Source: Bacteroidales bacterium
GTDB lineage: Bacteria; Bacteroidota; Bacteroidia; Bacteroidales; FEN-979
Reading direction: 5' to 3'
Length of the DNA: 64,000 nucleotides
Assembly: GCA_963682005.1 (NCBI GenBank)
Contig: OY820914.1
Coordinates: forward strand, 3,908,145-3,972,144
The notes beneath the pieces are model-generated. The model saw only the letters and a list, made by a program, of their open reading frames with translations, ran no database searches and was not told where the DNA came from. Positions 16,657 through 58,213 of the stretch are shown one piece after another (the stretch's first letter is position 1; each line of letters opens with the position of its first letter). The translations under genes and the position numbers were made by a program.

Positions 16657-16700
16657 TTTTCACTCTTAACTTTTCACTCTTCACTTTTCACTCTTCACTT
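16657..16700. repeat. tandem 14-nt unit TTTTCACTCTTCAC x ~3
   Basis: Direct reading: ttttcactcttaacttttcactcttcacttttcactcttcactt. Confidence 0.85.
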
Positions 16701-16856: not shown

Positions 16857-16896
16857 CATTTTACATTTTGCATTTTGCATTTTGCATTTTGCATTT
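16857..16896. repeat. tandem heptamer array GCATTTT x ~5.5
   Basis: Direct reading: cattttacattttgcattttgcattttgcattttgcattt. Confidence 0.9.
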
Positions 16897-20313: not shown

Positions 20314-20319
20314 GTTATC

Positions 20320-20389
20320 AAATCCAAAATCCAAAATCTAAAGTCTAAAATCTAAAGTCAAAAGTCAAAAGTCAAAAGTTAAAAGTCAA
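20320..20389. repeat. tandem heptamer array AAAATCC/AAAGTCA family x ~10
   Basis: Direct reading: aaatccaaaatccaaaatctaaagtctaaaatctaaagtcaaaagtcaaaagtcaaaagttaaaagtcaa. Confidence 0.9.
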
Positions 20390-20400
20390 CTAAACTTATT

Positions 20401-20430
20401 ATCCCGCATCCCGCATCGCGCATCCCGCAT
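20401..20430. repeat. tandem heptamer array CCCGCAT x ~4
   Basis: Reads atcccgcatcccgcatcgcgcatcccgcat and abuts the stop codon of rSAM-4 (20431). The same unit occurs at 51665-51699. Confidence 0.9.
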
Positions 20431-21982: not shown

Positions 21983-22010
21983 AATTACGAATTACGGATT
22001 ACGAATTACG
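21983..22010. repeat. tandem heptamer array AATTACG x 4
   Basis: Reads aattacgaattacggattacgaattacg, 8 nt upstream of the rSAM-4 start. A TTYTCAT x5 array follows at 22021-22055. Confidence 0.9.
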
Positions 22011-22044
22011 AAAGTTTAATTTTTCATTTTTCATTCTTCATTCC

Positions 22045-23196
22045 TCATTCTTCATTGTAAATTATCGAATAGCCTGCCTGCATGAACTTGCTGACTTCAG
22101 TCACAAAACTCAGTATAAGGTCACCATTGTTGAGTTTTTCTTCCTTCCTGATCTTATCTAAGCACAGGAAAGCCATTGGCGGACCGATGTAGCCCATCGT
22201 CGACATTTTTGTATAGAGCGTATTCCTTGAGATGCCAAGTGTTTCGCACTCATCCATCACAAGTTCAGTGATATGCTTTGAGGGAAAGTTAACCTGGAAG
22301 AAGCGGAGCGATGAAAGATCGATCTGGTATTTCGCGATCATCCGCTGTAATCCTTTCAGAAATACAGATCCGTCCGGTTCGTGAAAATTAGCACGAAGTT
22401 CCTCCTGGAACATCTGGGCAAGGTGATGATAGCCTTTCTCAAATTCCTCTTTCGGGTTCATCCAGTAGGAGGGCCGCCTGTTTCCCATGGCTGAGGGCTT
22501 TTTCCCCCCGATGGATTCGGTATAGACATGGTCAATAAAAAGACCGGTCCTGTCATTGTCTTCTGCTTTCAATACCAGCGCAGCGGCCCCGTCGCTTAAA
22601 AAATAGCGAAGGAAAAGTTCTTCTTTCTTTATTAAAGGCTGGTTGTAATATTCCGCCACAAGTTCAGACGAAGACATATTGGAGGAAATGACAAGTGCAT
22701 TTTTATACCGGCCGTTCCTGACCAGGTCATGGGCGAGAAGAAGCGCTTTGTAAGCTGAGGTGCAATTGGCATGAATGGAAAACTCCCCACATTGTTCAAT
22801 CCCAAGTTTCTCCTGGATCCGTACGGAAGCTGTAGGCATCTGGTCCTGGTGGGCGCTGCCGTAAACGATAAGCTCGACTTCATCCGGCTTCATTTGTGCA
22901 TCATCCAGCGCTTTCAGTGCTGCCTTTACCGACATACTCACATTGTCTTCGGTGAACTGCCTTGTAACAGGATCGATTGCAAAATGATAATATTCCACAT
23001 CCAGCATTTCTTTCATCAAAGGCCGTATGCGCTGTTCCCAGTTCCTGATCTTCAATGGCGCATCCTTCACCTCGCCTAAGTAATCATAGAGGTTTTCCAA
23101 CGGAATGGCCGACCCGGGAAGGTAGGTTCCGGTACCCGCCAGCCTGATGAATATCCTGTTATCAATTGTGTTTTTCGTGTTCACCTTATCCCGCAA
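22045..23196 (-). CDS. thiolase-fold KAS III (FabH)-like condensing enzyme
   Basis: 383 aa. It has a FabH-like N-terminus (LAGTGTYLPGSAIPLENL) and a candidate nucleophile in HANCTSAYKALLLA. Assignment within the thiolase superfamily (FabH, DarB or type III PKS-like) cannot be made by eye. Confidence 0.6.
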   Translation of the reverse strand: MRDKVNTKNTIDNRIFIRLAGTGTYLPGSAIPLENLYDYLGEVKDAPLKIRNWEQRIRPLMKEMLDVEYYHFAIDPVTRQFTEDNVSMSVKAALKALDDAQMKPDEVELIVYGSAHQDQMPTASVRIQEKLGIEQCGEFSIHANCTSAYKALLLAHDLVRNGRYKNALVISSNMSSSELVAEYYNQPLIKKEELFLRYFLSDGAAALVLKAEDNDRTGLFIDHVYTESIGGKKPSAMGNRRPSYWMNPKEEFEKGYHHLAQMFQEELRANFHEPDGSVFLKGLQRMIAKYQIDLSSLRFFQVNFPSKHITELVMDECETLGISRNTLYTKMSTMGYIGPPMAFLCLDKIRKEEKLNNGDLILSFVTEVSKFMQAGYSIIYNEE

Positions 23197-23863
23197 GTTG
23201 TTTCAGATACAATTTTGATTTTTCCTTTATATATCCGGATGAGATCTTCTGTATAAATCCAACGGCGGATTCCACTATTTGTTTCTTTGGAACAATTCGG
23301 TCAACCAGTCCGTATTCAAATGCATCTGATGCAGGAAAAGCATTTCCTCTCAATACCATCTCCATTGCCCGGGCTTTTCCGCAGGTTTTTGATGCCCTGG
23401 AGATCCCGCCGATCCCTGGTATCAGGTTATAGGTTGTTTCAGGGAGGGCAAAAACGGAATCTTCCCCGCAAAACCTGAAATGACTGAAAAGTGCCAGTTC
23501 CAGGGCCGATCCGAGGCAAACCCCGCGGATAGCCGAAATGACCGGTATTTCAAGTGCTTCCATGGAAAGAAAGGTATGATAATTTTTATCCAGGAATGCG
23601 GCAAGTTCCACCTGTTTTCCCGATGAATCAACCTGGGATTCATTTTTTACCAGGGATAGCAGTTGCGACAAATCAGCCCCGGCTGAAAAATGCCTTCCCT
23701 GGCCGCTGATCACAAGCCCCCTGAGATCCTTCATCTTTTGGATCTTCTCCATTATCTGGCCAAACTCGGAAAAGAACTCAAGTGTCATCTTATTCGATGG
23801 CGGTTGATCAAGGACAAGACTTCCTATATTGTTTGTTATAGAGAAAGAGATCGTGTTATACAA
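23186..23863 (-). CDS. enoyl-CoA hydratase/isomerase (crotonase) family protein
   Basis: 225 aa with the crotonase oxyanion motif ISGQGRHFSAGADL and AIRGVCLGSALELAL. Confidence 0.75.
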   Translation of the reverse strand: MYNTISFSITNNIGSLVLDQPPSNKMTLEFFSEFGQIMEKIQKMKDLRGLVISGQGRHFSAGADLSQLLSLVKNESQVDSSGKQVELAAFLDKNYHTFLSMEALEIPVISAIRGVCLGSALELALFSHFRFCGEDSVFALPETTYNLIPGIGGISRASKTCGKARAMEMVLRGNAFPASDAFEYGLVDRIVPKKQIVESAVGFIQKISSGYIKEKSKLYLKQLAG

Positions 23864-23871
23864 TGAACTTT

Positions 23872-23899
23872 AATTATGAATTATGAGTTTGAATTATGA
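23872..23899. repeat. AATTATG-family tandem repeat
   Basis: Reads aattatgaattatgagtttgaattatga. A near-identical string occurs at 51607-51641 and a shorter copy near 43403. Confidence 0.85.
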
Positions 23900-23956
23900 T
23901 TCCAATGGTTTTATTACTCTGTCACACCATTACCCTTATCGCCTTGTAACCCCTGA

Positions 23957-24712
23957 CTAATGTACCCCCCTGGATTTCGCTTCAATTGACGCAAGCTCGC
24001 AAAACATCCGGGTTTCTTCCTTCATCGATTCTGAGAACGAGATTTTACGGGCGTTTGAGAAAGCCTGCATGACACAGTGTATCACTTTATGCAATTTCCC
24101 ATCGGTCATTTTATTCAGCAGAGAGGTGGAGTATTCCATTAAACCATCACTTGCGACAATGTGGTCAATGATCTTCATTTCCAGCGCTTCTTTTGCATCG
24201 ATCATATCACCTTCCATCACCATCTTCATTGAATTCAAAAGGGATGTTCTTTCCATGATCCTGACCGTACCTCCCAGCCCCGGGATCAGTCCCCAGTTTG
24301 ACTCTGGAAAGGCAAACAATGCATTGTGGCTGCAGATCCTGATGTGACAGGCGAGGGCGATCTCAAGTCCGGCGCCGAAACAAATTCCTTTAATAACTGC
24401 AAAAACGGGAATGTCGATATTTTCAAGATAATCGAGTAGTTCTTTCCCCCGGCTCATCATCCTGAACATCTCCTCATGATCAAGTGCCATAGAAAAAAGC
24501 CCGTCCAGGTTTGCACCTCCTGAAAAATGGCGCCCGGTTCCTGTTATGATCAACCCTTTCAATTCTTCCTTTTCCTTCCAGTTCCTGAGGACGTCAACAG
24601 AAATAAATTCGGGACCTGTGAGGTAATTTTCCGGAGGATTGTCGAGTATAACAGTTCCGATCGAGTTGTTTACCTCCAGCTTTATATTCTTTAATGGTTC
24701 AGTCATGGACAT
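23957..24712 (-). CDS. enoyl-CoA hydratase/isomerase (crotonase) family protein
   Basis: 251 aa with ITGTGRHFSGGANL and VIKGICFGAGLEIALACH. Confidence 0.75.
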   Translation of the reverse strand: MSMTEPLKNIKLEVNNSIGTVILDNPPENYLTGPEFISVDVLRNWKEKEELKGLIITGTGRHFSGGANLDGLFSMALDHEEMFRMMSRGKELLDYLENIDIPVFAVIKGICFGAGLEIALACHIRICSHNALFAFPESNWGLIPGLGGTVRIMERTSLLNSMKMVMEGDMIDAKEALEMKIIDHIVASDGLMEYSTSLLNKMTDGKLHKVIHCVMQAFSNARKISFSESMKEETRMFCELASIEAKSRGVH

Positions 24713-24715: not shown

Positions 24716-25102
24716 TTATTCTGAAGGAAAAAGAAACCCGGGTAGATCCATTGGTGATTTATTTCTGTCGATCAGCAGGGTTTTTATGGTCGCCCTTGCA
24801 TTTGCAAGGCCAGTTGCTGTATTTCTGATCTTGTGATGGAAGACCAGGAAGGGTTCTTTCTTTTCATAACTTGTTTCTACCACCAGTTCTTCCAGAAGGC
24901 AGGACTCACGCATATACCGGATGGTTGTCTCAATCACAACAAGCATCCAGCCATTCTCCCTGAAATGATCAAGGATGCCGAGGTTCTGCATCACTTCCCA
25001 TCTTGCCTGTTCAAGATACTGAAGGTAAACGGCGTTATTGACATGCCCGTATGAATCGAGCTCATAGCCCCTGACTTGCAACCTGGTCTCAAATTTTCTC
25101 AT
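24716..25102 (-). CDS. 4HBT/YbgC-type acyl-CoA (acyl-ACP) thioesterase
   Basis: 128 aa with a hotdog thioesterase signature: VRGYELDSYGHVNNAVYLQYLEQAR. Confidence 0.7.
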   Translation of the reverse strand: MRKFETRLQVRGYELDSYGHVNNAVYLQYLEQARWEVMQNLGILDHFRENGWMLVVIETTIRYMRESCLLEELVVETSYEKKEPFLVFHHKIRNTATGLANARATIKTLLIDRNKSPMDLPGFLFPSE

Positions 25103-34539: not shown

Positions 34540-34956
34540 TCATATGATCCCCCATTTCTTCTTCCAGCCTATGTAAAATTCAGGAGAAGTAAGCAAAAGC
34601 TCACCCTCAGGTGTCAGAAAAACCTGGGTTGAACTGCCGGTAGCCATAAGCTCATGGTCCGATTTGCGGAAAATCCTGTATTCAAAAACGATCTTCGCGG
34701 CATCCGTATTGATGTATGTTGTTTCAACAACAGCTTCATCACCATAAACAAGGGGCCTCTTATAATCACAATTGACTTTAACGATCGGGATCATTATTTT
34801 GTGTTTATAAACATCAAGGTATCCGAGGTTATACTTCAAACCGAATGCTTCACGGCCGTCTTCAAAGTACTTAATGTAATTCCCGTGCCAGACGATCTTC
34901 ATGGAGTCAACTTCGCCGAACCTCACTTTGATCCCGATGGTGTCAGTCAATAACAT
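34540..34956 (-). CDS. 4HBT-type acyl-CoA/acyl-ACP thioesterase
   Basis: 138 aa with VRFGEVDSMKIVWHGNYIKYFEDGREAF. Confidence 0.7.
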   Translation of the reverse strand: MLLTDTIGIKVRFGEVDSMKIVWHGNYIKYFEDGREAFGLKYNLGYLDVYKHKIMIPIVKVNCDYKRPLVYGDEAVVETTYINTDAAKIVFEYRIFRKSDHELMATGSSTQVFLTPEGELLLTSPEFYIGWKKKWGII

Positions 34957-34957: not shown

Positions 34958-36259
34958 TTACTTTTTTAATGGACTTTTAAACTGCCTGTAAATCGCTGTG
35001 ATGATGACGGTCACAAGGAAGAATAAAAGGAGTTTGAATATTTCCGGAAATATATTGACAATGCTTCCACCGCGGAGGAATATGCTATAATAGCCGTTTA
35101 TAGCCCAGTTCAGGGGGCTTAATGTAGCTACATGCCTCATAAACTCAGGCATCAGGTAGATCGGAACCCACAATCCGCCCATGGCAGCCAGAATTATGAT
35201 CGACACCGAACCGAAGGCCGCCGCCTGCTGGTGGGTACTTGCCACAGTTCCGACGAGCATTCCGTAACCCAGAGCGGCAAGAGCGGTAACAATGGAAACA
35301 ATGGTCAGCGAGAAAAGCTGGCCGCCGATATCCAGCATGGGGATATGGAACAGCGGGAGGATGAAGATACCGGAAAGAATCATCAGTGCAGACTGGATCA
35401 TGCACACGATAAAGTACACTCCCGCTTTGGCAAGCAGAAGATTCATATAGGATACGGGCATAACCAGCAACCGGAAAAGGCTGCCTTCCTCGCGTTCTTT
35501 GATCATGCTGCTCGTAAGCGGAATGACAATAAAAAACATGGCAAAGATGGTCCATGCCGGAACGTTGTGCTGAACCGTATTCGGGGCTTCAGAGATTTCC
35601 TGGTACCTAGGATAGACCTCTTTAAAGGCGAGGGCGTCCTTATACTCCAGAACCGGGGGTTTGAACGTTGGGAACTGGTTCGCAATCTCCTGGTTAAAGC
35701 TTTTAAAGATCATTTCAGTTTCAACCTTATAATGATATTCACGAATAGAACTGATCACTGCATTCTTGAAAGAGGAACGGATGGCCGGATCAAAATAGAA
35801 GGTAATGGAATCAGCTTGTTTTAATGGAATATCCTTGAGCAGCCCTGCATTGAACAACCCGAAGCCGGCCAGAGTTTTTGCAACCATGAGTCTTACATTT
35901 GACCGGATCGTTTGTGTCACACCCGCAGGAATAACGATACCGATCACAAACTGACCGCGTTTGACGGCTTCCCTGACCGATTCTTCTGTAGCAGGTTTTG
36001 ATTCAATACTATCATAAATGGTAAAGAAATTAGAGTCGCGAAGGCCGTTCCTGATTTTTAGTCCAAGACTGTCGTTGTCTGTATTAACAAATACTATCGG
36101 CACCTTTGATTCATGAACAAGCGAATTCCATCCGTTTTCCTGGAGCAGCGACATGAGTACGACCAGGAACATCGGCATGGCAAATAAAACGATCATCCCT
36201 GCCCGGTCGCGCAACAGCAACAACCATTCTTTTTTTACTGCTGAGAAATATTTGAACAT
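34958..36259 (-). CDS. ABC-2 type transporter permease
   Basis: 433 aa. It has an N-terminal TM helix, a large extracytoplasmic loop and a C-terminal bundle of ~5 TM helices, which is the typical ABC-2 layout. Its cognate ATPase lies upstream. Confidence 0.7.
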   Translation of the reverse strand: MFKYFSAVKKEWLLLLRDRAGMIVLFAMPMFLVVLMSLLQENGWNSLVHESKVPIVFVNTDNDSLGLKIRNGLRDSNFFTIYDSIESKPATEESVREAVKRGQFVIGIVIPAGVTQTIRSNVRLMVAKTLAGFGLFNAGLLKDIPLKQADSITFYFDPAIRSSFKNAVISSIREYHYKVETEMIFKSFNQEIANQFPTFKPPVLEYKDALAFKEVYPRYQEISEAPNTVQHNVPAWTIFAMFFIVIPLTSSMIKEREEGSLFRLLVMPVSYMNLLLAKAGVYFIVCMIQSALMILSGIFILPLFHIPMLDIGGQLFSLTIVSIVTALAALGYGMLVGTVASTHQQAAAFGSVSIIILAAMGGLWVPIYLMPEFMRHVATLSPLNWAINGYYSIFLRGGSIVNIFPEIFKLLLFFLVTVIITAIYRQFKSPLKK

Positions 36260-36319: not shown

Positions 36320-36380
36320 GTCATTCCCGCGAAAGCGGGAACAGGCTGCAGGCTGCAGGCTACAGGCTACAGGCTACAGG
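36320..36380. repeat. composite element: 23-nt hairpin GTCATTCCCGCGAAAGCGGGAAC followed by CAGGCTR x ~5.5
   Basis: Direct reading. An identical 23-mer occurs at 47228-47250 next to a second CAGGCTR array. Confidence 0.9.
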
Positions 36381-36422
36381 ATTGTATGTTCATAATTTTG
36401 GTTAGGAATCATTTCCATTAAA

Positions 36423-36453
36423 ATTCGCAATTCGTAATTCGTCATTCGTAATT
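36423..36453. repeat. tandem heptamer array ATTCGTA x ~4.4 (reverse complement of the AATTACG family)
   Basis: Reads attcgcaattcgtaattcgtcattcgtaatt, ending 3 nt from the ABC ATPase stop codon. Confidence 0.9.
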
Positions 36454-36456: not shown

Positions 36457-37209
36457 TTAATCTCTCAGTTCTTTTCCCGTCAAATGAAGGAACAGGTTTT
36501 CAAGATTCTTGAACTCAGGCCGTTCTGCAACAAGTTCTTTTGGATTACCAATGGAAATGATCGTTCCCCGGTCGATGATCGCAACCCGTGAACACAGGTT
36601 TTCTGCTTCTTCCATATAATGGGATGTATAGATGATCGTTGTTCCCACTTTGTTGATCTCGTGAAGAAAATTGAGGATCACGATCCTTGACTGGACATCA
36701 ATGCCCACGGTCGGTTCATCGAGGAAAAGCACTTTGGGGTCATGGAGCAACCCTGCGATCAGGTTGACTCTCCGTTTCATTCCCCCCGAAAAAGTTCCCA
36801 CCTTTTTATTGGCATAGCGCTCAAGACCAAAGGTTCTGAGCCTTTCCATGATCTTATCGCGCAGGGACTTTCCGCGGAGATTGTACATGTTCCCGAAGAA
36901 CGTAAGGTTCTCCATTGCAGTCAGGGAAGGGTAGAGCGCAACATCCTGCGGAACTGTCCCGATAATCTTCTTGATCGAGTGAAGATCTGCCCTGATATCC
37001 AGGCCATCGATGGTTACAGACCCTTCGCCTGGTGGAAATAAACCGCACAGGATGGAAATGGTGGTGGTTTTTCCGGCTCCGTTGGGGCCCAGAAGTCCGA
37101 AAATCTCGTTTGGGAAAATATCAAGCGAAATAGATCTTAAAGCGGGTTCATCGGCACCCTGGTATGTTTTTGAAAGATCCTTGATCCGGATAAGGGGTGA
37201 ATTCTCCAT
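36457..37209 (-). CDS. ABC transporter ATP-binding protein
   Basis: Walker A (GLLGPNGAGKTTT), ABC signature (FSGGMKRRV) and Walker B (LFLDEPT). Confidence 0.9.
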   Translation of the reverse strand: MENSPLIRIKDLSKTYQGADEPALRSISLDIFPNEIFGLLGPNGAGKTTTISILCGLFPPGEGSVTIDGLDIRADLHSIKKIIGTVPQDVALYPSLTAMENLTFFGNMYNLRGKSLRDKIMERLRTFGLERYANKKVGTFSGGMKRRVNLIAGLLHDPKVLFLDEPTVGIDVQSRIVILNFLHEINKVGTTIIYTSHYMEEAENLCSRVAIIDRGTIISIGNPKELVAERPEFKNLENLFLHLTGKELRD

Positions 37210-37211: not shown

Positions 37212-38228
37212 TCAGAATTGAACGGTTTTTAGTTTCTTGTAAACGGCCTCTTCCATATCGGCGATCTCAAGCATCAGATTGCCCAGTTTACCATAATCTT
37301 CCTCGGGTTTCGAGCGGTTTTTGCAATTTCTTGCTCCGACATAGGTGAATTCCCTCCATTTATTCGCTGTCTTTCCCATCATATCTGAAGCCGCAAGGAG
37401 GTCACTGCTGTTGTACTTTTCCCCGACTTCTTTCAGGAATGCACCGTAGATATAGCGAAATCCGGCTCCGCCAGTACCAAAATCCTCAGCCATCCTGATG
37501 ACCTGGCCCACATAGAATGCTGCTTTATCGTTTCCGTGCTTTTTCGGCCATTTTTTCATATCCCGGGCCATCCATCGGATTCCTTTTACACCGATCAGCG
37601 GAAAAGGTACGCCGATCATATCGTACACCGTCCTTTTAATTCCTTTTATAATGGCGGGTTTAAAGTCGACTTCTTTATTGACCTTGGTGATCCAGTACAT
37701 TTTTCCCTTCGGGGCAAACGCACCTTTAGCATAACGGACACGCAAAAGATCGTCGTAGCTTATCAACTGGGGATGTTCCATGACCGTATCGCTGACATGA
37801 TACATGTTTCCTTCCTTGCCAAATGCGACAAGGTTATGCATATTATAATGCTGACGGTATTCGGGGGGAAAAAATGTAAGCTGGAATACACCAACCTGCA
37901 TGCCTGTCGGGATCCCGTTCATGAGGTTCCTGTCAAGCATTTCCATGGCTTCCTTCGGATCTTTAAAGCTTTTCACAACCGTGGCTTCCGCCCCGAGATT
38001 GGTGGTAGAGCGCTTGAATACCATGTTCGGGAAATTCCGGAACGACATCATCGGGGCGAACATTATTTTCAGGAATGGAATATAGCTGAAAAATAACCCG
38101 TTGCCGATCCCGAATGCCATCGGTTCAGACATTTCAAGACCATGAAATTTGAAAAGGTTTGAAGTGGCCCCGCTTTCGCAATGGCCTGCCTGGCGATGCG
38201 TATAATTAATCAGATATTTATCATTCAT
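37212..38228 (-). CDS. BtrH N-terminal domain-like (papain-fold Cys/His) protein, copy 1
   Basis: 338 aa. The N-terminal HRQAGHCESGATSNL matches my memory of the BtrH_N/DUF4872 family. The blocks FFPPEYRQHYNMHN and PFPLIGVKGIRW are conserved, and it is ~55% identical by eye to the 38788-39789 product. Confidence 0.55.
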   Translation of the reverse strand: MNDKYLINYTHRQAGHCESGATSNLFKFHGLEMSEPMAFGIGNGLFFSYIPFLKIMFAPMMSFRNFPNMVFKRSTTNLGAEATVVKSFKDPKEAMEMLDRNLMNGIPTGMQVGVFQLTFFPPEYRQHYNMHNLVAFGKEGNMYHVSDTVMEHPQLISYDDLLRVRYAKGAFAPKGKMYWITKVNKEVDFKPAIIKGIKRTVYDMIGVPFPLIGVKGIRWMARDMKKWPKKHGNDKAAFYVGQVIRMAEDFGTGGAGFRYIYGAFLKEVGEKYNSSDLLAASDMMGKTANKWREFTYVGARNCKNRSKPEEDYGKLGNLMLEIADMEEAVYKKLKTVQF

Positions 38229-38243
38229 TCGTTATACATTTTA

Positions 38244-38645
38244 TTAATCTACAATTTTTAACTGGTCAACAGTAATATTAAAAGCTTCGGCATATTTCTG
38301 GAGGGTCTTCTCATTCAACCGGTTGAAGACACCAGGTTTAAAATGTCGTTTCACCCTCCAAAGTCCAATCCCGGAAATAATGGAAAGGTTCAATGGGTCC
38401 AGCAGGTTCTTTTCCATGTAATAAACGATCGGGCTGGCCGTTCCGCTCTTGACTTTTTGCCGGGCTTCTTCCGCGCGTTCCTTAAAATGGTCCCATGCCT
38501 GTTGCAGGACGACTCTGTCAGCTTCACCGTGAAAACCTACGCTTTGTTCATAATCGCCCTTTTCAGCGTATGAATAGAACAATTCACGGTACTGTCCGAA
38601 GTTTTGGTCTTTATAAACAGGGTTATCTTTGTTATCCATAGACAT
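38244..38645 (-). CDS. small conserved protein with possible C-terminal HTH, copy 1
   Basis: 133 aa. It is a paralog of the 39812-40225 product, sharing RELFYS...SP..YYMEK.L....L....G...WRVKRH.KP.VF..L. Confidence 0.5.
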   Translation of the reverse strand: MSMDNKDNPVYKDQNFGQYRELFYSYAEKGDYEQSVGFHGEADRVVLQQAWDHFKERAEEARQKVKSGTASPIVYYMEKNLLDPLNLSIISGIGLWRVKRHFKPGVFNRLNEKTLQKYAEAFNITVDQLKIVD

Positions 38646-38787
38646 TCCTATATAATTAGATTTATGATATTATTGAAATCTTTTGCGAAAGTAATGAAAA
38701 AAGTGTTAGGGTTTGCAGAAGCTTTCTGGTTCCGGAATACCAGGAAGAGCAACATTCTCCAGCTGTCATTATCATACATTGCAATAA

Positions 38788-39789
38788 TTATTTGATCTTC
38801 CCGAGCTTTTTAAAGATCACCTCTTCTTTATCAGCGCAATCAAGCAGGATATCCGCAAGAAAGTCATAGGATTCTTCAGGCTTTCCCCTTTTCTTGCAAT
38901 TCCTTGACCCAAGATACGAAAAATCACGCCACCTGTTTGCATTTTTTCCCATTTCAATGGCCATTTCTTTCAACCAGTCCTGCTGCAAAACACCCGCTGC
39001 TTCATCGAGGAATGCCCCATAGATAAAGCGAAATCCTGCGCCTGCTGTACCAACCTCTTCCTCCATGCGTAGTACCTGTCCCAGGTAATAAGAGGCTTTT
39101 TCATCTCCGTATTTTTTTTGCCAGTTCCTCATCTGCCTGGACAAATACCTGATTCCTTTCACCCCGATCAATGGGAACGGTACTTCTGTCATATTATAAG
39201 CGGTCTTTTTGATCCCTTTTATGATGGCAGTCCTGATATCCGGGTTTTCAGGAAAAGAATAAGGGAAGTACATGCGTCCTTTCGGGGCGAATGGTCCTTT
39301 TGCGAACCTGACGCGCATCAGGTCCTGGTAACTGATCGTCACCGGTTTCTCGACCACCGTATCGCTGATGTAATAATGCCCGTTCTCCTTTCCGTAAACG
39401 ACCATGTTATGCATGTTGTAATGCATCCTGTATTCTGGCGGAAAGAAAGGAAGATGGAATGTTCCCACCTGCAGTCCGACGGGAAATCCTTTTCCAAGGG
39501 TCTGGTCAAGCAGATCCATCGCCTTCTCAGGATCACGGAAATGATGGATCTGGCTCTTAACGCCTAATTGCCTTGTCGCCCTGCTGAACACCATCCCCGG
39601 CCATACCCTGAATGAGGTGACAGGGGCATGCTGCATTTTGAGGAACGGGAGATAACTGAAGAACAAACCGGCACCGATCCCAAAAACCAGTGGTTCGCTG
39701 ATGCTGATTTTATGATAGTGCAACAAGTTTGAAGTTACACCGCTTTCACAGTGCCCGGCCTGCCGGTGCTCGAAGTCCATTTTTATCAT
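38788..39789 (-). CDS. BtrH N-terminal domain-like (papain-fold Cys/His) protein, copy 2
   Basis: 333 aa with HRQAGHCESGVTSNL, FFPPEYRMHYNMHN and PFPLIGVKGIRY. Confidence 0.55.
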   Translation of the reverse strand: MIKMDFEHRQAGHCESGVTSNLLHYHKISISEPLVFGIGAGLFFSYLPFLKMQHAPVTSFRVWPGMVFSRATRQLGVKSQIHHFRDPEKAMDLLDQTLGKGFPVGLQVGTFHLPFFPPEYRMHYNMHNMVVYGKENGHYYISDTVVEKPVTISYQDLMRVRFAKGPFAPKGRMYFPYSFPENPDIRTAIIKGIKKTAYNMTEVPFPLIGVKGIRYLSRQMRNWQKKYGDEKASYYLGQVLRMEEEVGTAGAGFRFIYGAFLDEAAGVLQQDWLKEMAIEMGKNANRWRDFSYLGSRNCKKRGKPEESYDFLADILLDCADKEEVIFKKLGKIK

Positions 39790-39811
39790 TTATGCCTTTC
39801 TTTTTCCAGAG

Positions 39812-40225
39812 TTATTTTACCAAAAATCCCGGTGTTACGAGTTCTTCCGGGGTAACATCAAAGATTGATGCATAATTCAGGATCACGTTGGGCTTAAGCT
39901 TCGAAAACACCTTTGGTTTCAGGTGCCGCTTTACCCTCCATTTCATGAATCCCGAATAATCAGCCAGGGTAGGCAGTTCCATCAGGTGTTTTTCCATATA
40001 ATAGGCGAGGGGACTCAATTCGCCCTCCTTTATCTTTTGTATCACATTGTTGATCCTCTCCTCGGCAACTTCCCAGCTTTGCTTTATGATCACCTGGTTG
40101 GCGCTGTACTGGTAACCCACACGCTTTGTGTAATTCCCATTCTCATCAAACGAATAAAAAAGTTCCCTGTTGTTCCTGTAAATGAGATCTTCATCAGAAG
40201 TACCCGAGCCGTTTTGTTCCTTCAT
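39812..40225 (-). CDS. small conserved protein with possible C-terminal HTH, copy 2
   Basis: 137 aa; a paralog of the 38244-38645 product. Confidence 0.5.
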   Translation of the reverse strand: MKEQNGSGTSDEDLIYRNNRELFYSFDENGNYTKRVGYQYSANQVIIKQSWEVAEERINNVIQKIKEGELSPLAYYMEKHLMELPTLADYSGFMKWRVKRHLKPKVFSKLKPNVILNYASIFDVTPEELVTPGFLVK

Positions 40226-40239: not shown

Positions 40240-40680
40240 CTAATTCTTGATTAAAAATATTCTTAATTCACATTCCGCAAGGATGCGATCTTCTGAAGTA
40301 ACCTTTGCGGAAACAATGGTGGCGTCAAAAACCTCGTTTGTGACAACTGTTTCTGTCAGCAATTTGTCCCCGGATTTGGGCAGTTCATGGATCCGGAGAT
40401 TTTTGATCCCTCCGATAAAACCTAGCTGTGGCTCCCTTTTTTCCAGGTCGGCAGCATAACCTGCTCCGGCAGCTGCTGTCTGGGCCATATTCTCGATCAG
40501 CCCGGGTTCGCGTAATCTGCCTTTTTCAAAGAAAATATTGTTTTCTCTGACAGTCATGGAAGTCACCGTCAGCTTGCCTTCGACCCGTACAAGCTCATCA
40601 ATCATAACCATCGGATCCCGTTGGGGAATAAAACGGTCCATATCACTTCTTTCAGCGATTACCTTTTCAAATGATGCCAT
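40240..40680 (-). CDS. hotdog-fold dehydratase-like protein
   Basis: 146 aa with IPQRDPMVMIDELV...EPGLIENMAQTAAAG...GFIGGIKNLRI, as in the FabZ-like dehydratases of aryl-polyene clusters. Confidence 0.6.
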   Translation of the reverse strand: MASFEKVIAERSDMDRFIPQRDPMVMIDELVRVEGKLTVTSMTVRENNIFFEKGRLREPGLIENMAQTAAAGAGYAADLEKREPQLGFIGGIKNLRIHELPKSGDKLLTETVVTNEVFDATIVSAKVTSEDRILAECELRIFLIKN

Positions 40681-42026
40681 AATGATCCTTTTCTGTTTCG
40701 TTTTCGCATCCTGTTCATGGCTGTAACAACATCCTCGTCAGGGAATACCCATCTGCGACCAGTCGCATCTGCCCGTTCCTTAAGGGTTTTGTAATCAATT
40801 CCTTTGGCAAGGTAATAGGCAGGCTCAAGTAAGTCATCACCAGGAGTGATAACCCCTTCTTCCGAAGCCAGGTCAAAAAGTCTTGTCCCGGGATAGATCC
40901 TCATCCCGATGTATGGAAAAAATACCGTGTTCTCAAACTTTTTGGAGTTCTCAAATCCTTCATTGACCGAATCTTCTGTCTCACCATATCCGCCAAGGAT
41001 AAGGAAATGAGAGTAATAGATCCCAACTTTGTTGCACAGATCGGAGACTTCCAGAACTTCTTCCATGGTAAAATGCTTCCCGTAATGCTTTAACGTTGAA
41101 TCGGAAAGGGATTCCGTGCCGAATTCAATATGTGTCAGTCCAGCAGCGAAGAACAGCCGGAGTGTCTCTTCATCCAGGTCATGCGGTGAAAAATAGGCGC
41201 CCCATTTGATCTGCAGGCCTCTTGAAATCATCTTCTCTGCAAGCTCCTGGTTGAATTTCTTGTTGATGTTGAAAACCGAGTCCGTGAAAAATACATGGTC
41301 GATATTTTTCTTAAAATAGAGTTCAGCCAGCGTATCAATGATTTTATCCGGATCAAGCGTTCTCACTTTTGTTCCTTCGATCACAGGATAGGTGCAGTAA
41401 ATGCATTTATGCGGACATCCCCGTTTGGTCTGAACATTCATCATTCCGCTCTTATTCCAGTAAAAGTCGATGAGACTTTTCTCAAAGTTAAGATCAAGTT
41501 GTTTCAGGAATGTTTTTCTGGGATTCAGGATGATCTCCTGGCCGTTGCTGTAAACAAGGCCCTGAATGTGCGTATAGTCTTCCTTTCTGATCAGGCAGGT
41601 AATTAGCTTTGACAGGCTTTCCTCGCCCTCTCCATAGATTCCGAAATCGGGCTGAAGGTACCCGAACAGTTTTTTCGGAAAAATGGAGAATGCCGAACCA
41701 CCTATAATGAGCGTTGTTTGAACAGTGCTCCTGACGGTATCCATGATCTTCTTATAATCATGGATGAATATGTTCCTGGACATGGAATCCACATCATCAA
41801 TATTCCGGAAGGAGATCCCCGTAAAATCAGGGGACCATGAGGTAAGCACGTCCCTGAATGAAGCGTTGGATTCAAGATTAAAGTCAAAGATCCTGATCTC
41901 AAGATCCGGCATCGAGGAAGAAAGATAGGAGTGAAGATAGGAAATACCTAACGGGTAAACCGGGTATGGAACAGCAAATTTGTTAGCTGAGACAAGCAGA
42001 AGTTTATATTTCCTATCTGATTTCAC
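40659..42026 (-). CDS. B12-binding domain-containing radical SAM protein (rSAM-5), paralog of rSAM-3
   Basis: 455 aa with PDFTGISFRNIDD and QTKRGCPHKCIYCTYP (CxxxCxxC). Confidence 0.8.
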   Translation of the reverse strand: MKSDRKYKLLLVSANKFAVPYPVYPLGISYLHSYLSSSMPDLEIRIFDFNLESNASFRDVLTSWSPDFTGISFRNIDDVDSMSRNIFIHDYKKIMDTVRSTVQTTLIIGGSAFSIFPKKLFGYLQPDFGIYGEGEESLSKLITCLIRKEDYTHIQGLVYSNGQEIILNPRKTFLKQLDLNFEKSLIDFYWNKSGMMNVQTKRGCPHKCIYCTYPVIEGTKVRTLDPDKIIDTLAELYFKKNIDHVFFTDSVFNINKKFNQELAEKMISRGLQIKWGAYFSPHDLDEETLRLFFAAGLTHIEFGTESLSDSTLKHYGKHFTMEEVLEVSDLCNKVGIYYSHFLILGGYGETEDSVNEGFENSKKFENTVFFPYIGMRIYPGTRLFDLASEEGVITPGDDLLEPAYYLAKGIDYKTLKERADATGRRWVFPDEDVVTAMNRMRKRNRKGSLWHHLKR

Positions 42027-42934
42027 TTGGTTTGATTTTGAGTTGATGCAGGTTTCTGCCAGAAATCATAATAGTTATACCACTGAAGCGGATATTTCTT
42101 TACGATCCTTTCAAATGCTTTTGCATATTCGGTGACCGCTTCCCTCAGATATAATTCGCGTTTTTTCAGGTTCCCTGAAAACGGGACGGTCATTAACGGA
42201 GTCGCATAAAAATGATAGTGCGTCCGGGTGTCCTTAACAGCAAAAACATATGAGACCGGTACGTTGAAATGTGCAGCCATGTTAACAGGACCAACCGGGA
42301 ACGGAGCTGATTTCCCAAGGAAATCAACCATGATTGTTTTGTTCCCTTCGATGAACCTGTCGCCATGCATGGCAATGATCTCCCCCTTTTCCAATGCGTT
42401 CCTGATATCATTCAGATGAGAGAAATCTTCACGTATGATGATGAAATTGACGCTTCTCTTGACCAGTACATCTGACAGAAATCCTTTGATCTGCTGGTGC
42501 TCTGCATCAAAAAGGATGATGTTGATCCGTTTCTCAAGCCGGTTGAGCAGTTGCCCGGCGATTTCCCAGTTCCCGATATGGCCGCTGATCAGGAATCCAC
42601 CCTTGTCGATCTGCCTTAAGTATTCCTCGCCTTCAAAATCAAATGTAAACTTATTCTGAAACCCGGCGAGCATCGCGATCTTGTCAATCAGTACCTGGCC
42701 AAAGTTGAAGTAATTCCGATAAACGCTGGCAAATGAAGCAATAGGACTCCTTTTAATCATCCTCCGGTAAAACTGATATGAACTATTAAATGATTTCGGG
42801 GAAGAAACCATGAAATATGCAACTACGAAATAAAGGAGGAAATAAGCGAAAGGGATACCTGGATACCGGATTATCCAGATAAAGATTTTATATCCAATGA
42901 CACCGCCGCGGGTTTTTCCTTTCCATGAGGACAT
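42023..42934 (-). CDS. LpxL/HtrB-type lysophospholipid (lipid A late) acyltransferase family protein
   Basis: 303 aa with an N-terminal TM helix and the HxxxxE-type motif ISGHIGNWEIAG, typical of LpxL-like acyltransferases. Confidence 0.7.
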   Translation of the reverse strand: MSSWKGKTRGGVIGYKIFIWIIRYPGIPFAYFLLYFVVAYFMVSSPKSFNSSYQFYRRMIKRSPIASFASVYRNYFNFGQVLIDKIAMLAGFQNKFTFDFEGEEYLRQIDKGGFLISGHIGNWEIAGQLLNRLEKRINIILFDAEHQQIKGFLSDVLVKRSVNFIIIREDFSHLNDIRNALEKGEIIAMHGDRFIEGNKTIMVDFLGKSAPFPVGPVNMAAHFNVPVSYVFAVKDTRTHYHFYATPLMTVPFSGNLKKRELYLREAVTEYAKAFERIVKKYPLQWYNYYDFWQKPASTQNQTK

Positions 42935-43263: not shown

Positions 43264-43295
43264 AATTACGGATTACGAATTACGGATTACGAATT
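43264..43295. repeat. tandem heptamer array AATTACG/GATTACG x ~4.5
   Basis: Direct reading: aattacggattacgaattacggattacgaatt. Confidence 0.9.
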
Positions 43296-44664: not shown

Positions 44665-44707
44665 CTTCCCGTGTGCGCAGTTGGTTAGTAATTCATTGGT
44701 TTATGAT

Positions 44708-44728
44708 GCTGGTTGCTGGATGCTGGAT
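44708..44728. repeat. tandem heptamer array GCTGGWT x 3
   Basis: Reads gctggttgctggatgctggat; the same unit as 11679-11712. Confidence 0.85.
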
Positions 44729-44736
44729 ATATACCC

Positions 44737-44767
44737 ATTCGTAATTCGTAATTCGTAATTCGTAATT
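44737..44767. repeat. tandem heptamer array ATTCGTA x ~4.4
   Basis: Reads attcgtaattcgtaattcgtaattcgtaatt and runs into the FabG stop codon at 44766-44768. Confidence 0.9.
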
Positions 44768-47188: not shown

Positions 47189-47250
47189 GCAGGCTGCAGG
47201 CTACAAGCTACAGGCTTTCGCCGTGCCGTCATTCCCGCGAAAGCGGGAAC
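47189..47250. repeat. composite element: CAGGCTR-type array x4 followed by the 23-nt hairpin GTCATTCCCGCGAAAGCGGGAAC
   Basis: Reads gcaggctgcaggctacaagctacaggct ... gtcattcccgcgaaagcgggaac. The order is opposite to the 36320-36380 copy. Confidence 0.9.
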
Positions 47251-48312: not shown

Positions 48313-48386
48313 GGCTCCGTGGCGTAACTGAATAGCGCATCTGACTACGGATCAGAAGGTTACAGGTTTGAATCCTGTCGGAGTCA
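48313..48386 (+). tRNA. tRNA-Arg(ACG): tRNA-Arg (anticodon ACG)
   Basis: Hand-folded cloverleaf. Acceptor stem GGCTCCG/CGGAGTC (one G-T pair), D stem GCGT/GCGC, anticodon stem TCTGA/TCAGA with loop CTACGGA, 5-nt variable loop, T stem ACAGG/CCTGT with loop TTTGAAT, discriminator A. No CCA is encoded. Confidence 0.85.
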
Positions 48387-48398
48387 CAAGACAAATGT

Positions 48399-48442
48399 AA
48401 AGTGCAAGGTGCAAAGTGTAACTAATTTGCACTTTGCACTTT
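48399..48442 (+). terminator. hairpin downstream of tRNA-Arg (possible intrinsic terminator)
   Basis: AAAGTGCAAGGTGCA pairs with TGCACTTTGCACTTT (one mismatch) across a 14-nt loop, followed by the T-rich ttcgtttta. Confidence 0.4.
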
Positions 48443-48941
48443 TCGTTTTACACGTTAGACTTCGAACTTTTCAATTTGCACCTTCCAAGGAATCTTTTGA
48501 CTGTCGTTTCAATGACTGATCACGAGTTTCCTGGTTTCTATGCCAGTCGTCGTTTCCATGCTCACATATAGATACCGCTGTGCAAAGAATACATTCATAA
48601 TCCATGGCAGCATCACCAGCAAGACTACATGATTTTTCATATTAATGTGAGTTTATCTTGTTTTCGATATACCATATATGTCTTTCAAATAACATAAGTG
48701 CGATCCATGCAAATACGTTACAGTGAGAAAAAATGAGAACTCCGTATTGTTGAGGAAGCGGAAGAATTGTCAGCTTTTAATCGCCCTATCTGGTCCCGTT
48801 GTAGACCCATGGTGAACCCATTCATCACCCGTCCAGGTTTTTCGTTTCATTCACAGGAATGATATGACAGGTTGGCAGTAGAAATTGTCAATGCTGCCTG
48901 TTGTTAAATTACATATTTATACGTTAATACTGATTTATTTG

Positions 48942-48984: not shown

Positions 48985-50241
48985 ATGAAAAGCAGAATTT
49001 TTTTCTTTTTGGTACTGGCGATGAGCATGTTTACTATTCCAGTCTTTTCTCAGACAGAAAGTAAAACAGCGAAAGATACCACATTATTGGGTCTGCCCGG
49101 AGACAATCTGGACCTTTATGCAGTATTGGAACTTTTTCAAAAGTCAAAGACCATTGAAGACTTTGAGAAATCGTTAAATGAAGAAAAGACAGGGATCAAT
49201 AACCTGGATCTTAATTTGGATGGGAAAGTTGATTTCATCAAGGTTGTAACAAAGAAAAATGGGGACGATTTTACATTTATTCTTCAGGTAGATGTGAGTA
49301 AGACGGAAAAGCAGGATGTCGCTGTTATCTTAGTTACAAAAGATAAGAATAAGAAAGTTTCGATACAGATTGTCGGCGACAAGGCATTGTACGGTAAGGA
49401 TTATATTGTCGAGCCAAAGCCGACTGCAACTCCGGCTGTTACTGCAAATCCAGGGTACACCGGTTCAGAACCGGTGACGGTGAATGTTCCGTCTTCAACC
49501 ACAGTTGTAGTTGTGGAATCGGCACCTATTGTGCAGTATGTTTATTCACCTGCGTATGTGCCCTACGTTCCGCCCTATTATTATGGATTCTATCCGCCTT
49601 ATTTTGCAGCATTTACTGTAATGGCTGTAAGTGTTTACCGTCACAATAATTATTATTACCATGGCGGCGGATATGGGTATGGTTATCATGGGAATACCAC
49701 AGTAATTCATAATACCAACAATTACAATAATTACAATAATTCGAGGAGCTCTTCCAATACTGTGAATCATAATAATGCGAATGGAAATTACAATCGGAAT
49801 AATGGATCAGCAGGTAATCGGCCTTCGACACAACCGGCGAACCGTCAGTCAGGAGGCGCTTCCCCCTCGACCCAGCCTGCAAACCGTCAGTCAGGAGGTG
49901 CTTCACCCTCAACCCAGCCTGCAAACCGTCAATCAGGAGGTGCTTCACCCTCAACCCAGCCTGCGAAACGTCAGTCAGGAGGTGCTTCACCCTCAACACA
50001 ACCCACAAACCGTCAATCAGGAGGCGTTTCACCTTCGACCCAGCAATCAAATCGTCAATCAAGTCCGTCATCAAATTCATATAACGGCCGTAATTCTAAT
50101 AGCGGAAGTCAAATGGGAGGCGGCAGTTCCAGAGGAGGAAGCAGTTATAGCGGAGGTAGTTCAAGAGGCGGAGGTGGTTATAGCGGAGGCGGCGGTTCAA
50201 GAGGTGGTGGAGGTTCCAGAGGCGGCGGAGGCAGACGATAA
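48985..50241 (+). CDS. secreted low-complexity protein with EF-hand-like loop, Tyr/Pro-rich segment, 14-aa tandem repeats and Gly/Arg/Ser tail
   Basis: 418 aa. It has a signal peptide (MKSRIFFFLVLAMSMFTIPVFSQ) and a DLNLDGKVDF Ca-loop-like motif. It also has YVPYVPPYYYGFYPPYF, five or more copies of PSTQPANRQSGGAS, and a GGSSRGGGGYSGGGGSRGGGGSRGGGGRR tail. Confidence 0.7.
   Translation: MKSRIFFFLVLAMSMFTIPVFSQTESKTAKDTTLLGLPGDNLDLYAVLELFQKSKTIEDFEKSLNEEKTGINNLDLNLDGKVDFIKVVTKKNGDDFTFILQVDVSKTEKQDVAVILVTKDKNKKVSIQIVGDKALYGKDYIVEPKPTATPAVTANPGYTGSEPVTVNVPSSTTVVVVESAPIVQYVYSPAYVPYVPPYYYGFYPPYFAAFTVMAVSVYRHNNYYYHGGGYGYGYHGNTTVIHNTNNYNNYNNSRSSSNTVNHNNANGNYNRNNGSAGNRPSTQPANRQSGGASPSTQPANRQSGGASPSTQPANRQSGGASPSTQPAKRQSGGASPSTQPTNRQSGGVSPSTQQSNRQSSPSSNSYNGRNSNSGSQMGGGSSRGGSSYSGGSSRGGGGYSGGGGSRGGGGSRGGGGRR
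49822..50070 (+). repeat. 42-bp in-frame tandem repeat, ~5.9 copies
   Basis: Unit ccctcaacccagcctgcaaaccgtcagtcaggaggtgcttca. The central copies differ by 2-3 nt and the edge copies are more diverged. Confidence 0.9.
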
Positions 50242-51547: not shown

Positions 51548-51606
51548 AGTCTTCAGTTTTTTCGGCAAACATAAAAATAAAAACCAGAGAAATCAAATCT
51601 TTCAGG

Positions 51607-51641
51607 AATTATGAATTATGAGTTTGAGTTATGAATTATGA
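51607..51641. repeat. AATTATG-family tandem repeat
   Basis: Reads aattatgaattatgagtttgagttatgaattatga; compare 23872-23899. Confidence 0.85.
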
Positions 51642-51664
51642 TACAAATTGTTTCCTTAATCTCA

Positions 51665-51699
51665 CGCATCCCGCATCCCGTATCCCGCATCCCGCATCA
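51665..51699. repeat. tandem heptamer array CGCATCC (=CCCGCAT family) x 5
   Basis: Reads cgcatcccgcatcccgtatcccgcatcccgcatca and overlaps the TGA stop (51697-51699) of the M6 protease gene. Confidence 0.9.
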
Positions 51700-57906: not shown

Positions 57907-58188
57907 ATGGAGAATGATACGGGGAAAAAAGGAAAAAGTAAGTGGGTCAGGTATCTCGGTTTCGGTCTGATATTCCTGACATGGATCATCTGGGGTGTGA
58001 TCTTCCTGATCCCTTTCCTTCATCTTGGATTGAAAAAAGCGGCGATCGCAACAACGGTCCTCTTAATCGCCACAAATATTTTTTACCTTGGACTTTTTCT
58101 TGTCGGGAAAGAACTTGCAGAGAAGTTCAATATCCGGGGAAAGATAAAGGCCTGGATGATGAGGAGGAAATCAAAAGGCGGAGGATAG
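57907..58188 (+). CDS. small two-TM membrane protein (transporter-suffix-domain-like)
   Basis: About 93 aa from MENDTGKK with two hydrophobic helices (LGFGLIFLTWIIWGVIFLIPFL and AAIATTVLLIATNIFYLGLFLVG). The family name is from memory only. Confidence 0.4.
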   Translation: MENDTGKKGKSKWVRYLGFGLIFLTWIIWGVIFLIPFLHLGLKKAAIATTVLLIATNIFYLGLFLVGKELAEKFNIRGKIKAWMMRRKSKGGG

Positions 58189-58213
58189 TGAATAGTGAAT
58201 AGTGAATAGTGAA
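58186..58213. repeat. tandem heptamer array TAGTGAA x 4
   Basis: Reads tagtgaatagtgaatagtgaatagtgaa, starting at the TAG stop of the upstream gene. Confidence 0.9.

Follow-up and report, generated by a model that had tools for sequence, protein, structure and literature searches.

Tandem DarG-DarH pairs in a flexirubin-like gene cluster of a Bacteroidales bacterium: candidate transacylase units of possibly different specificity

A 64,000-nucleotide stretch of the genome of a Bacteroidales bacterium (assembly GCA_963682005.1, contig OY820914.1; hereafter the window) carries, on its minus strand, a two-gene module that is repeated in tandem just ahead of the genes of an ATP-binding cassette (ABC) exporter. 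Each copy associates a small protein with a helix-turn-helix (HTH) appearance and a larger BtrH-like protein, which raises the questions of what reaction the large proteins may catalyze, why a small partner stands beside each of them and why the whole module is present twice. As detailed below, the two genes belong to the families DarG and DarH of flexirubin-type clusters, and the two pairs are designated here as DarG1-DarH1 and DarG2-DarH2. We lean, by a modest degree, towards a reading in which the two pairs would form cognate DarG-DarH transacylase units of different specificity feeding the DarIJ exporter, the substrates and the role of DarG being what we infer.

A known module in an unusual arrangement

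The gene order, protein sizes and strand proposed by the first-pass annotation of the window, which was made from the sequence alone, all match the coordinates of the open reading frames (ORFs; Table 1), as does the start of the ABC ATPase gene 2 nt past the DarH2 stop. Successive genes of the four are separated by 22, 142 and 15 nt. Similarity between the copies is far above chance, with 56% identity over 331 aa for DarH1 and DarH2 (E 1e-147), in line with the figure of about 55% initially estimated by eye, and 44% identity over 110 aa for DarG1 and DarG2 (E 4e-35). The sequence blocks pointed out at the same time were also retrieved: HRQAGHCESG(V/A)TSNL and FFPPEYR.HYNMHN occur in both large proteins, and the pattern RELFYS...SP..YYMEK...WRVKRH.KP.VF in both small ones.

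Searches with NCBIfam models (release of June 2026) placed both large proteins above the cut-off (300 bits) of the equivalog NF053550, 'BtrH-related acyltransferase DarH', with 418.4 bits for DarH1 and 399.7 bits for DarH2. The small proteins passed the subfamily model NF053536, 'DarG family dialkylresorcinol biosynthesis protein' (119.1 and 126.9 bits for DarG1 and DarG2; cut-off 70), but failed the equivalog NF053545, 'flexirubin biosynthesis protein DarG' (124.6 and 122.8 bits; cut-off 170), on which the canonical DarG of Chitinophaga silvatica reaches 189.1 bits. The names darG and darH follow the scheme of Schoner et al. 2014 for the dar cluster of Chitinophaga pinensis, tabulated in a 2026 taxonomic paper (PMC12968099), where G is listed as a hypothetical protein, H as a BtrH N-terminal domain protein, I as an ABC ATPase and J as an ABC permease, with Fjoh_1098 to Fjoh_1095 as the F. 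johnsoniae counterparts of G, H, I and J. In the arcuflavin cluster of Azoarcus sp. BH72, genes of the same families are listed as darD, annotated as a conserved hypothetical, and darE, annotated as a BtrH-like peptidase, with an ABC ATPase gene next in line; the 'darG/darH' of that paper are other, unrelated genes (PMC3949708). The initial impression that the module had never been described in flexirubin pathways was thus wrong: it corresponds to darG/darH in C. pinensis and darD/darE in Azoarcus, and curated NCBIfam models exist. Judged by these family matches, the gene pair is the already named DarG/DarH module of flexirubin-type clusters, and automatic annotation would name it. Literature searches for DUF4872 or Fjoh_1096-1098 returned no relevant study, only Fjoh_1102 (darB) being matched.

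Canonical clusters and the window share the order small protein, BtrH-like protein, ATPase and permease. Compared with the canonical dar cluster, three features are new. The module is present twice in tandem, an arrangement conserved among relatives, with a triplication found elsewhere. The two DarG copies, with about 124 bits, fall under the flexirubin DarG equivalog cut-off of 170, which on the basis of the profile scores sets them apart. Finally, the module follows genes for a TIGR04072 B12-binding radical S-adenosylmethionine (radical-SAM) protein and an ApeP-like hotdog protein, so that B12-radical-SAM chemistry stands in place of DarA/DarB.

To delineate the distribution of the module, species-representative genomes were scanned with a DarH alignment, which yielded at least 520 loci; the best 80 were analysed by searching their six-frame ORFs with hidden Markov models. 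These 80 loci belong to Bacteroidota (Bacteroidales of the Prolixibacteraceae, Rikenellaceae and Lentimicrobiaceae, as well as Chitinophaga and Chryseolinea) and to Desulfobacterota (Syntrophaceae and Desulfobacterales). The gene pair does co-occur outside the genome under study, DarG being directly upstream of DarH in 76 of the 77 evaluable loci. Four loci have no upstream DarG: in three of them DarH lies at the edge of its contig, whereas the fourth, L034 (8963-9403 on the minus strand and 9956-10996 on the plus strand), is a true absence; there, the ORFs neighbouring DarH are unrelated and the ABC genes still lie downstream. A reverse search started from distant DarG proteins (33-38% identity) recovered the same DarG-DarH pairing. 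The two genes are tightly packed, with a median distance of 1 nt between DarG stop and DarH start, at most 30 nt in 80 of the 89 pairs and an overlap in 42 pairs, and the ABC ATPase and permease genes follow DarH in nearly all 80 loci. Two cluster types can be distinguished upstream of the module. The first carries DarA-DarB, with or without a hotdog gene; DarA was detected in 32 loci, all of this DarA-DarB (ketosynthase III, KSIII) type. The second, to which the window belongs, carries LpxL-like, TIGR04072 radical-SAM and hotdog genes.

DarH as a candidate carrier-protein-dependent transacylase

The two domain families predicted for the large proteins were found in both, in N-to-C order and far above the Pfam gathering cut-offs. 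BtrH_N (PF14399; cut-off 29.7) matched DarH1 with 154.3 bits (E 3e-45) and DarH2 with 135.9 bits (E 1e-39), and DUF4872 (PF16169; cut-off 28) matched them with 176.5 bits (E 5e-52) and 165.3 bits (E 1e-48), respectively. The cysteine and histidine proposed from the motifs alone as catalytic residues proved to be invariant, Cys14 and His127 of DarH1 being conserved in 96 of 96 DarH copies, and an aspartate 16 residues past the histidine, Asp143, completes a candidate triad (95 of 96 copies, with one Glu). His13 is also invariant and Gln10 is kept in 74 of the 96 copies. The same triad residues occupy positions 17, 131 and 147 in DarH2.

The AlphaFold model of DarH1 has a mean predicted local distance difference test (pLDDT) score of 89.7 and a predicted template modelling (pTM) score of 0.89. 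It is composed of an alpha/beta region over residues 1-180 followed by an all-helical region over residues 185-329, a bipartite architecture combining a papain-like and a helix-rich part. Foldseek searches of this model against the PDB returned AziU3, from the AziU3/U2 complex, as the top match over the whole length (E 1e-10, template modelling (TM) score 0.66-0.69), together with whole-length matches to CtaG (E 5e-9, TM 0.64-0.70, for 12% sequence identity) and to CcbD (E 8e-9), including its complex with a peptidyl carrier protein (PCP) domain. CtaG, a papain-like ligase with a Cys11/His128/Asp144 triad, operates by a ping-pong mechanism in which the intermediate is bound to the enzyme. BtrH and AsbE, which are related to it in structure, combine carrier-bound donors with free acceptors, and the donor with which CcbD acylates an amino sugar is carrier-bound as well (PMC12865890).

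The triad residues of DarH are spaced almost as in CtaG and the genomic context is rich in acyl carrier protein (ACP) functions, hence a papain-fold, carrier-protein-dependent transacylase is the best-supported reading of the DarH model. The ACP-dependent acyl transfer proposed at the outset is therefore in line with the nearest structures that have been solved and with published work on CtaG, BtrH and AsbE (PMC12865890), while for DarH itself it is still deduced by analogy.

Comparison with these enzymes reveals differences as well as likenesses. BtrH (butirosin) and AsbE (petrobactin) have the BtrH_N domain, the papain-like plus helical architecture and the Cys-His-Asp triad in common with DarH, but their products are amides, formed on an aminoglycoside in one case or on a polyamine in the other, and no DarG-like partner has been described for them, whereas the product predicted for DarH would be a lipid ester. 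CtaG (closthioamide; 9QUZ and others) shares its whole-length fold with DarH1 and its triad aligns with Cys14/His127/Asp143; CtaG, however, works alone and forms an amide between a donor and an acceptor that are both PCP-bound. The best structural matches are AziU3/AziU2, the azinomycin aziridine-forming complex, and CcbD, a lincosamide condensation enzyme. AziU3 in complex with a separate AziU2 provides a precedent for a DarG-like subunit, yet AziU3/U2 are described as functionally unrelated to transacylation (PMC12865890).

Amplification of the module and the role of DarG

Among the 80 loci, those with two pairs were all of the radical-SAM type. The tandem G-H-G-H arrangement of the window was found in at least nine loci, plus two partial ones, indicating that the duplication is conserved in the clade and hence not peculiar to this genome. 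Four loci (L038, L039, L047 and L056) carry a second, highly divergent DarG-DarH pair that is transcribed divergently from the TAL gene (tyrosine ammonia-lyase type); in the first of them (L038, 1085-2604 on the minus strand), DarH passes its model with 317.5 bits (cut-off 300) and DarG, with 55 bits, fails the cut-off of 70. A metagenomic contig (L084, 712-4922) displays three tandem DarG-DarH pairs ahead of the ABC genes. Its DarH copies all keep the Cys/His/Asp residues and are 58-62% identical to each other and 40-45% identical to the window copies, this array having been amplified independently of the tandem in the window. DarG and DarH have therefore been amplified together on at least three separate occasions, as the tandem found in the window, as the divergent pair and as the triple tandem.

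Neighbour-joining trees of 96 DarH and 90 DarG sequences were congruent, the first pairs of tandem loci forming one clade, T1, which contains DarG1 (39812-40225) and DarH1 (38788-39789), and the second pairs another, T2. A number of loci with a single pair are nested in T2 or placed beside T1. Because T1 and T2 hold the first and second pairs with single-pair loci among them, the sequence trees indicate that the duplication of the window is one old event involving the whole module, kept in a Prolixibacteraceae-like clade of Bacteroidales and lost in some relatives. At 23 positions of DarH, the T1 and T2 clades have each fixed a different residue; among these are positions 18 and 23 beside the cysteine and positions 104, 110 and 114. 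Such a divergence is compatible with diverged specificity; the two pairs probably differ in donor or acceptor, and both DarH paralogs are probably active and distinct. The spacer corresponding to the DarH1-DarG2 interval is not conserved, varying from 4 to 148 nt among ten tandem loci that share no core sequence that could be aligned, and no repeat or terminator-like signal was found in the 142-nt spacer of the window, which is probably a mere junction left by the old duplication. Bacteroidota promoters deviate from the sigma-70 consensus.

The HTH-like character attributed to the small protein is borne out by its predicted fold. The AlphaFold model of DarG1 (pLDDT 82.8) comprises a disordered segment (residues 1-15), a beta-hairpin (21-37), a long helix (41-66) and a five-helix HTH domain (72-130), the latter of Cro/C1 type and preceded by an acidic N-terminal extension. 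Foldseek superposed residues 72-130 on SinR, C.AhdI and P22 c2 with a root-mean-square deviation (rmsd) of 1.8-2.2 A over 57-60 residues and target-normalised TM scores of 0.7-0.78 against Cro/C1 (XRE) proteins. The two window proteins have no Pfam match at E<=1; among 25 members of the family, 12 match HTH_26 individually (E 4e-5 at best). The top-conserved stretch of DarG is the basic and near-invariant 'recognition helix' KWRVKRHLKPK. The two halves of the protein are of opposite character, the isoelectric point (pI) being about 5.1 for the N-terminal half and about 9.5 for the HTH half, against 4.5 for the cluster ACPs. Profile searches among 1.84 billion representative sequences collected 573 DarG clusters, nearly all of them stand-alone proteins of 125-155 aa. 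Against the PDB, the DarG profile gave only a non-significant match to 3fym, an uncharacterised protein (E 0.15) that we take to be a RodZ-like HTH and that is a lead only. One different occurrence of the domain was encountered in L083 (423-1763; P0343, 446 aa), where one protein joins a radical-SAM domain that is not of the B12 type and, at the C-terminus, a DarG-like HTH; it is followed by a methyltransferase-like gene and not by DarH, and the fusion may be a gene-call artefact or another use of the DarG domain.

With such a fold, DarG might be an ordinary Cro/C1-type DNA-binding regulator of the cluster and DarH an independent enzyme, their adjacency reflecting co-regulation only. This explanation draws on the superposition of the 60 C-terminal residues on SinR, C.AhdI, P22 c2, 434 Cro and HipB at about 2 A rmsd, on the HTH_26 matches and on the basic, near-invariant WRVKRHLKPK segment. 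Yet DarG is located mid-operon, with translational coupling to DarH as the usual situation, and is re-duplicated with each additional DarH up to two or three copies per operon, which would be needless for a shared regulator. An acidic N-terminal beta-hairpin followed by a long helix further distinguishes it from the Cro/C1 proteins that share its five-helix fold, as do its coupling to and amplification with an enzyme gene. Searches upstream of TAL, the first cluster gene, in 19 loci disclosed no conserved palindrome besides the anticodon stem of a tRNA, in what was a low-power test. Mirror-tree analysis of 45 single-pair loci also argues against this explanation: DarG and DarH distances correlate with r = 0.84 (partial r 0.81 controlling for the ABC ATPase), the ATPase-permease correlation being no higher (r 0.78), and the correlation of DarG with the ABC proteins vanishes when controlling for DarH (-0.05 and -0.01). 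XRE-like domains devoid of DNA binding are known in enzymes, and those of HppE and HEPD are among the DarG fold matches. We thus regard a regulatory DarG as unlikely, though not negligibly so. Mid-operon coupling, co-amplification, the lack of a shared operator, the mirror-tree result and the AziU3/AziU2 precedent, AziU3 having been crystallised in complex with a separately encoded AziU2 (PDB titles), favour a cognate subunit or adaptor of DarH over a classical repressor. No sequence similarity was found between AziU2 and DarG.

A second alternative bears on DarH, which could be a hydrolytic papain-like thioesterase that detaches the completed acid from its ACP so that DarIJ can export it, with no ester being formed. 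The papain-like Cys-His-Asp triad fits hydrolytic release, DarH is strictly linked to the exporter and it persists in clusters without DarA/DarB. However, the characterised relatives of this fold are all transferases, ligases or non-hydrolytic enzymes (PMC12865890), and the cluster already has two 4HBT/YbgC-type thioesterases (Table 1), which together make simple hydrolysis improbable. We give far less weight to a repressor-protease switch comparable to ImmR/ImmA, CapH/CapP or DdrO/IrrE, with DarH cleaving its cognate HTH repressor upon a signal. An XRE-type HTH protein lying beside a protease-fold protein, their 1:1 cognate co-evolution and the presence of CapH and DdrO among the DarG fold matches are reminiscent of such systems, but these matches merely reflect how common the XRE fold is, while a mid-operon site, two or three copies per operon and a fixed linkage to an ABC exporter are unlike a regulatory switch; to our knowledge, known switches use ImmA/IrrE-type metalloproteases and not BtrH-like proteins. 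Finally, a C39-like leader peptidase serving the adjacent transporter, as in bacteriocin exporters, is barely conceivable: BtrH_N is distantly related to C39 peptidases, some DarH homologs have a precomputed Peptidase_C39_2 match and the C39 peptidase domain of PCAT1 appears in the DarH fold list, but this last match is weak (E 0.02, TM 0.35, versus E 1e-10 for AziU3), the transporter is of ABC-2 type with a separate ATPase and not a PCAT, and there is no precursor-peptide gene in what is throughout a context of lipid/polyketide biosynthesis.

The flexirubin-like cluster and its predicted products

The module is embedded in a single large flexirubin-like cluster that covers about 535-47090 of the window on the minus strand. 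In addition to the features collected in Table 1, this cluster encodes a tyrosine or histidine ammonia-lyase (TAL/HAL)-type enzyme, a short-chain dehydrogenase/reductase, several ketosynthases (KS) and KS/chain-length factor-like pairs, ApeP-like hotdog proteins, a polysaccharide deacetylase, LolA and 'LolB2_flexi' proteins, a glycosyltransferase, a CrtI-like desaturase and a FlxU-like MMPL/PlsC/methyltransferase protein with a PlsC domain. Three ACPs had been counted initially; two clear ACP genes stand, and the third candidate is weak. No DarA-like ORF was detected in the 64-kb window, nor any true DarB, the sole KSIII reaching 115.6 bits against a cut-off of 450. DarI and DarJ directly downstream of DarH are a canonical dar feature, but DarA and DarB are not adjacent to the module and, as judged from gene content, the cluster is not of the canonical dar type. 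The lipid partner of the polyene is here probably not a classical dialkylresorcinol.

Considering these elements together, the reading towards which we lean would proceed as follows. An acyl chain, most likely an aryl-polyene acid and possibly an alkyl chain too, would be built on a cluster ACP and passed from the phosphopantetheine thioester to Cys14 of DarH1 or Cys17 of DarH2, with His127 and Asp143 (DarH1 numbering) acting as base, and then to the hydroxyl of a free lipid acceptor to give an ester. The acceptor would be a dialkylresorcinol made by DarA/DarB in canonical clusters and, in the window, a product of the B12-radical-SAM, hotdog and remote KSIII enzymes. The hydrophobic ester would be handed to the DarI/DarJ ABC-2 exporter and then to LolA/LolB-like proteins. 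DarG would be a stoichiometric partner of its own DarH, its HTH fold being re-used for a protein contact, for instance in ACP docking or DarH stabilisation, and the two pairs, derived from one old duplication, would handle different donors or acceptors.

Several observations weigh against this scheme. The cluster holds other candidate ester-forming enzymes, namely the LpxL-like acyltransferase, the C45/Ntn FlxW-like protein and the PlsC domain of the FlxU-like protein, and FlxW is the enzyme proposed by Schoner et al. 2014 for polyene-resorcinol coupling. DarA and a true DarB, which would make the acceptor in canonical clusters, are absent from the window. Mirror-tree and co-duplication data fit any cognate functional pairing and not only a physical complex, DarG has a genuine DNA-binding fold of which the canonical recognition helix is the top-conserved segment, and no DarG::DarH fusion was found among the 150 representatives listed of the 573 clusters. 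The searchable literature yielded no experiment on any DarG or DarH. Lastly, syntenic single-pair loci hold either a T2-type or a T1-related pair, which implies that the two copies are not both obligatory; the DarH copies probably catalyze one type of reaction on different substrates and not two obligatory consecutive steps.

A more specific version can be put forward tentatively, and we would not yet count on it. DarG would not be a transcription factor but a dedicated HTH-fold subunit bound 1:1 to the DarH of its pair, where it might, for instance, dock the acidic acyl-ACP or control transfer to DarIJ, and the two cognate units (three elsewhere) would attach different acyl chains to a non-dialkylresorcinol acceptor produced by the B12-radical-SAM enzymes.

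Table 1. Module, catalytic positions and neighbouring genes in the window (position 1 is the first nucleotide of the window)
Feature	Position	Strand	Basis or remark
DarG1, 137 aa	39812-40225	minus	ORF
DarH1, 333 aa, T1 paralog	38788-39789	minus	ORF, Pfam, NCBIfam
DarG2, 133 aa, T2 paralog	38244-38645	minus	ORF, NCBIfam
DarH2, 338 aa, T2 paralog	37212-38228	minus	ORF, Pfam, NCBIfam
ABC transporter ATPase (DarI equivalent)	36457-37209	minus	Pfam ABC_tran
ABC-2 type permease (DarJ equivalent)	34958-36259	minus	Pfam ABC2_membrane_3, synteny
HTH domain of DarG1, residues 72-130	39836-40012	minus	includes KWRVKRHLKPK
HTH of DarG2	38256-38432	minus	
Cys14 codon of DarH1	39748-39750	minus	predicted acyl-accepting nucleophile
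His127 codon of DarH1	39409-39411	minus	candidate triad
Asp143 codon of DarH1	39361-39363	minus	candidate triad
Cys17 codon of DarH2	38178-38180	minus	candidate triad
His131 codon of DarH2	37836-37838	minus	candidate triad
Asp147 codon of DarH2	37788-37790	minus	candidate triad
DarH1-DarG2 spacer, 142 nt	38646-38787	minus	
ApeP-like hotdog protein, upstream of DarG1	40240-40680	minus	
'Lipid biosynthesis B12-binding/radical SAM protein'	40659-42026	minus	NCBIfam TIGR04072, 423.8 bits, cut-off 360; one of four B12-radical-SAM genes, two of which are TIGR04072-like
B12-radical-SAM gene	2045-3352		
B12-radical-SAM gene	13383-14810	plus	
B12-radical-SAM gene	20431-21975		
LpxL-like acyltransferase	42023-42934		
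4HBT/YbgC-type thioesterase	34540-34956		
4HBT/YbgC-type thioesterase	24716-25102		
C45/Ntn FlxW-like protein	3319-5031		
Two crotonases	23186-24712		
3-hydroxyacyl-CoA dehydrogenase	535-1500		
3-hydroxyacyl-CoA dehydrogenase	19267-20334		
Remote KSIII, sole one of the window	22045-23196		22% identical to DarB

Beyond the TAL gene, the genes are unrelated to the cluster and include a type IX secretion system substrate, consistent with a Bacteroidota origin. A tRNA-Arg(ACG) gene (48313-48387, plus strand) adjoins the TAL end of the cluster and is also located upstream of TAL in eight related loci. The sequence TCTGA-N7-TCAGA, seen upstream of TAL in 7 loci and considered as a DarG operator, was rejected, being the anticodon stem of this conserved tRNA gene. 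Further on lies a 418-aa ORF (48985-50241, plus strand) with no Pfam match, the coding sequence of which contains tandem repeats, of 42/84 nt at 49828-50044 and, at 50116-50231, of 18 nt and Gly-rich. Tandem arrays with a period of 7, made of 4-9 copies of a heptamer that differs from site to site, are scattered over the window, mostly between genes and at several sites within the operon (11679-11712, 13172-13203, 16659-16699, 16857-16896, 20320-20431, 21983-22056, 23872-23899, 36341-36380, 36422-36453, 43264-43295, 44705-44767, 47190-47216, 48399-48481, 51606-51698 and 58185-58213). The ABC ATPase and permease genes are set apart by an unusual gap of 197 nt, which two of these arrays fill, and arrays of a similar kind are found in three other loci (L019, L061 and L012). 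We assume that they resemble the heptamer STRR (short tandemly repeated repetitive) sequences of cyanobacteria.

These findings overturn no current ideas; the module is known and already has a name, and what is described here is a variant of it. As chemotaxonomic markers of Bacteroidota, flexirubins are classical, and the enzyme joining the aryl-polyene acid to the phenolic lipid has never been demonstrated; placing DarH in a transacylase class whose mechanism was only recently solved, with CtaG, provides a directly testable candidate for this ester step. A strict 1:1 HTH-fold partner would be a new accessory-subunit arrangement for papain-like transacylases and would add another DNA-binding fold recruited to enzymology. 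Duplicated modules and several B12-radical-SAM genes in clusters lacking DarA/DarB suggest that anaerobic Bacteroidales and Desulfobacterota make flexirubin-like lipids that have yet to be characterised. Should cognate units acting on a non-dialkylresorcinol acceptor prove true, they would reveal an undescribed class of flexirubin-like pigments in these bacteria together with the long-missing ester-forming enzyme of flexirubin biosynthesis.

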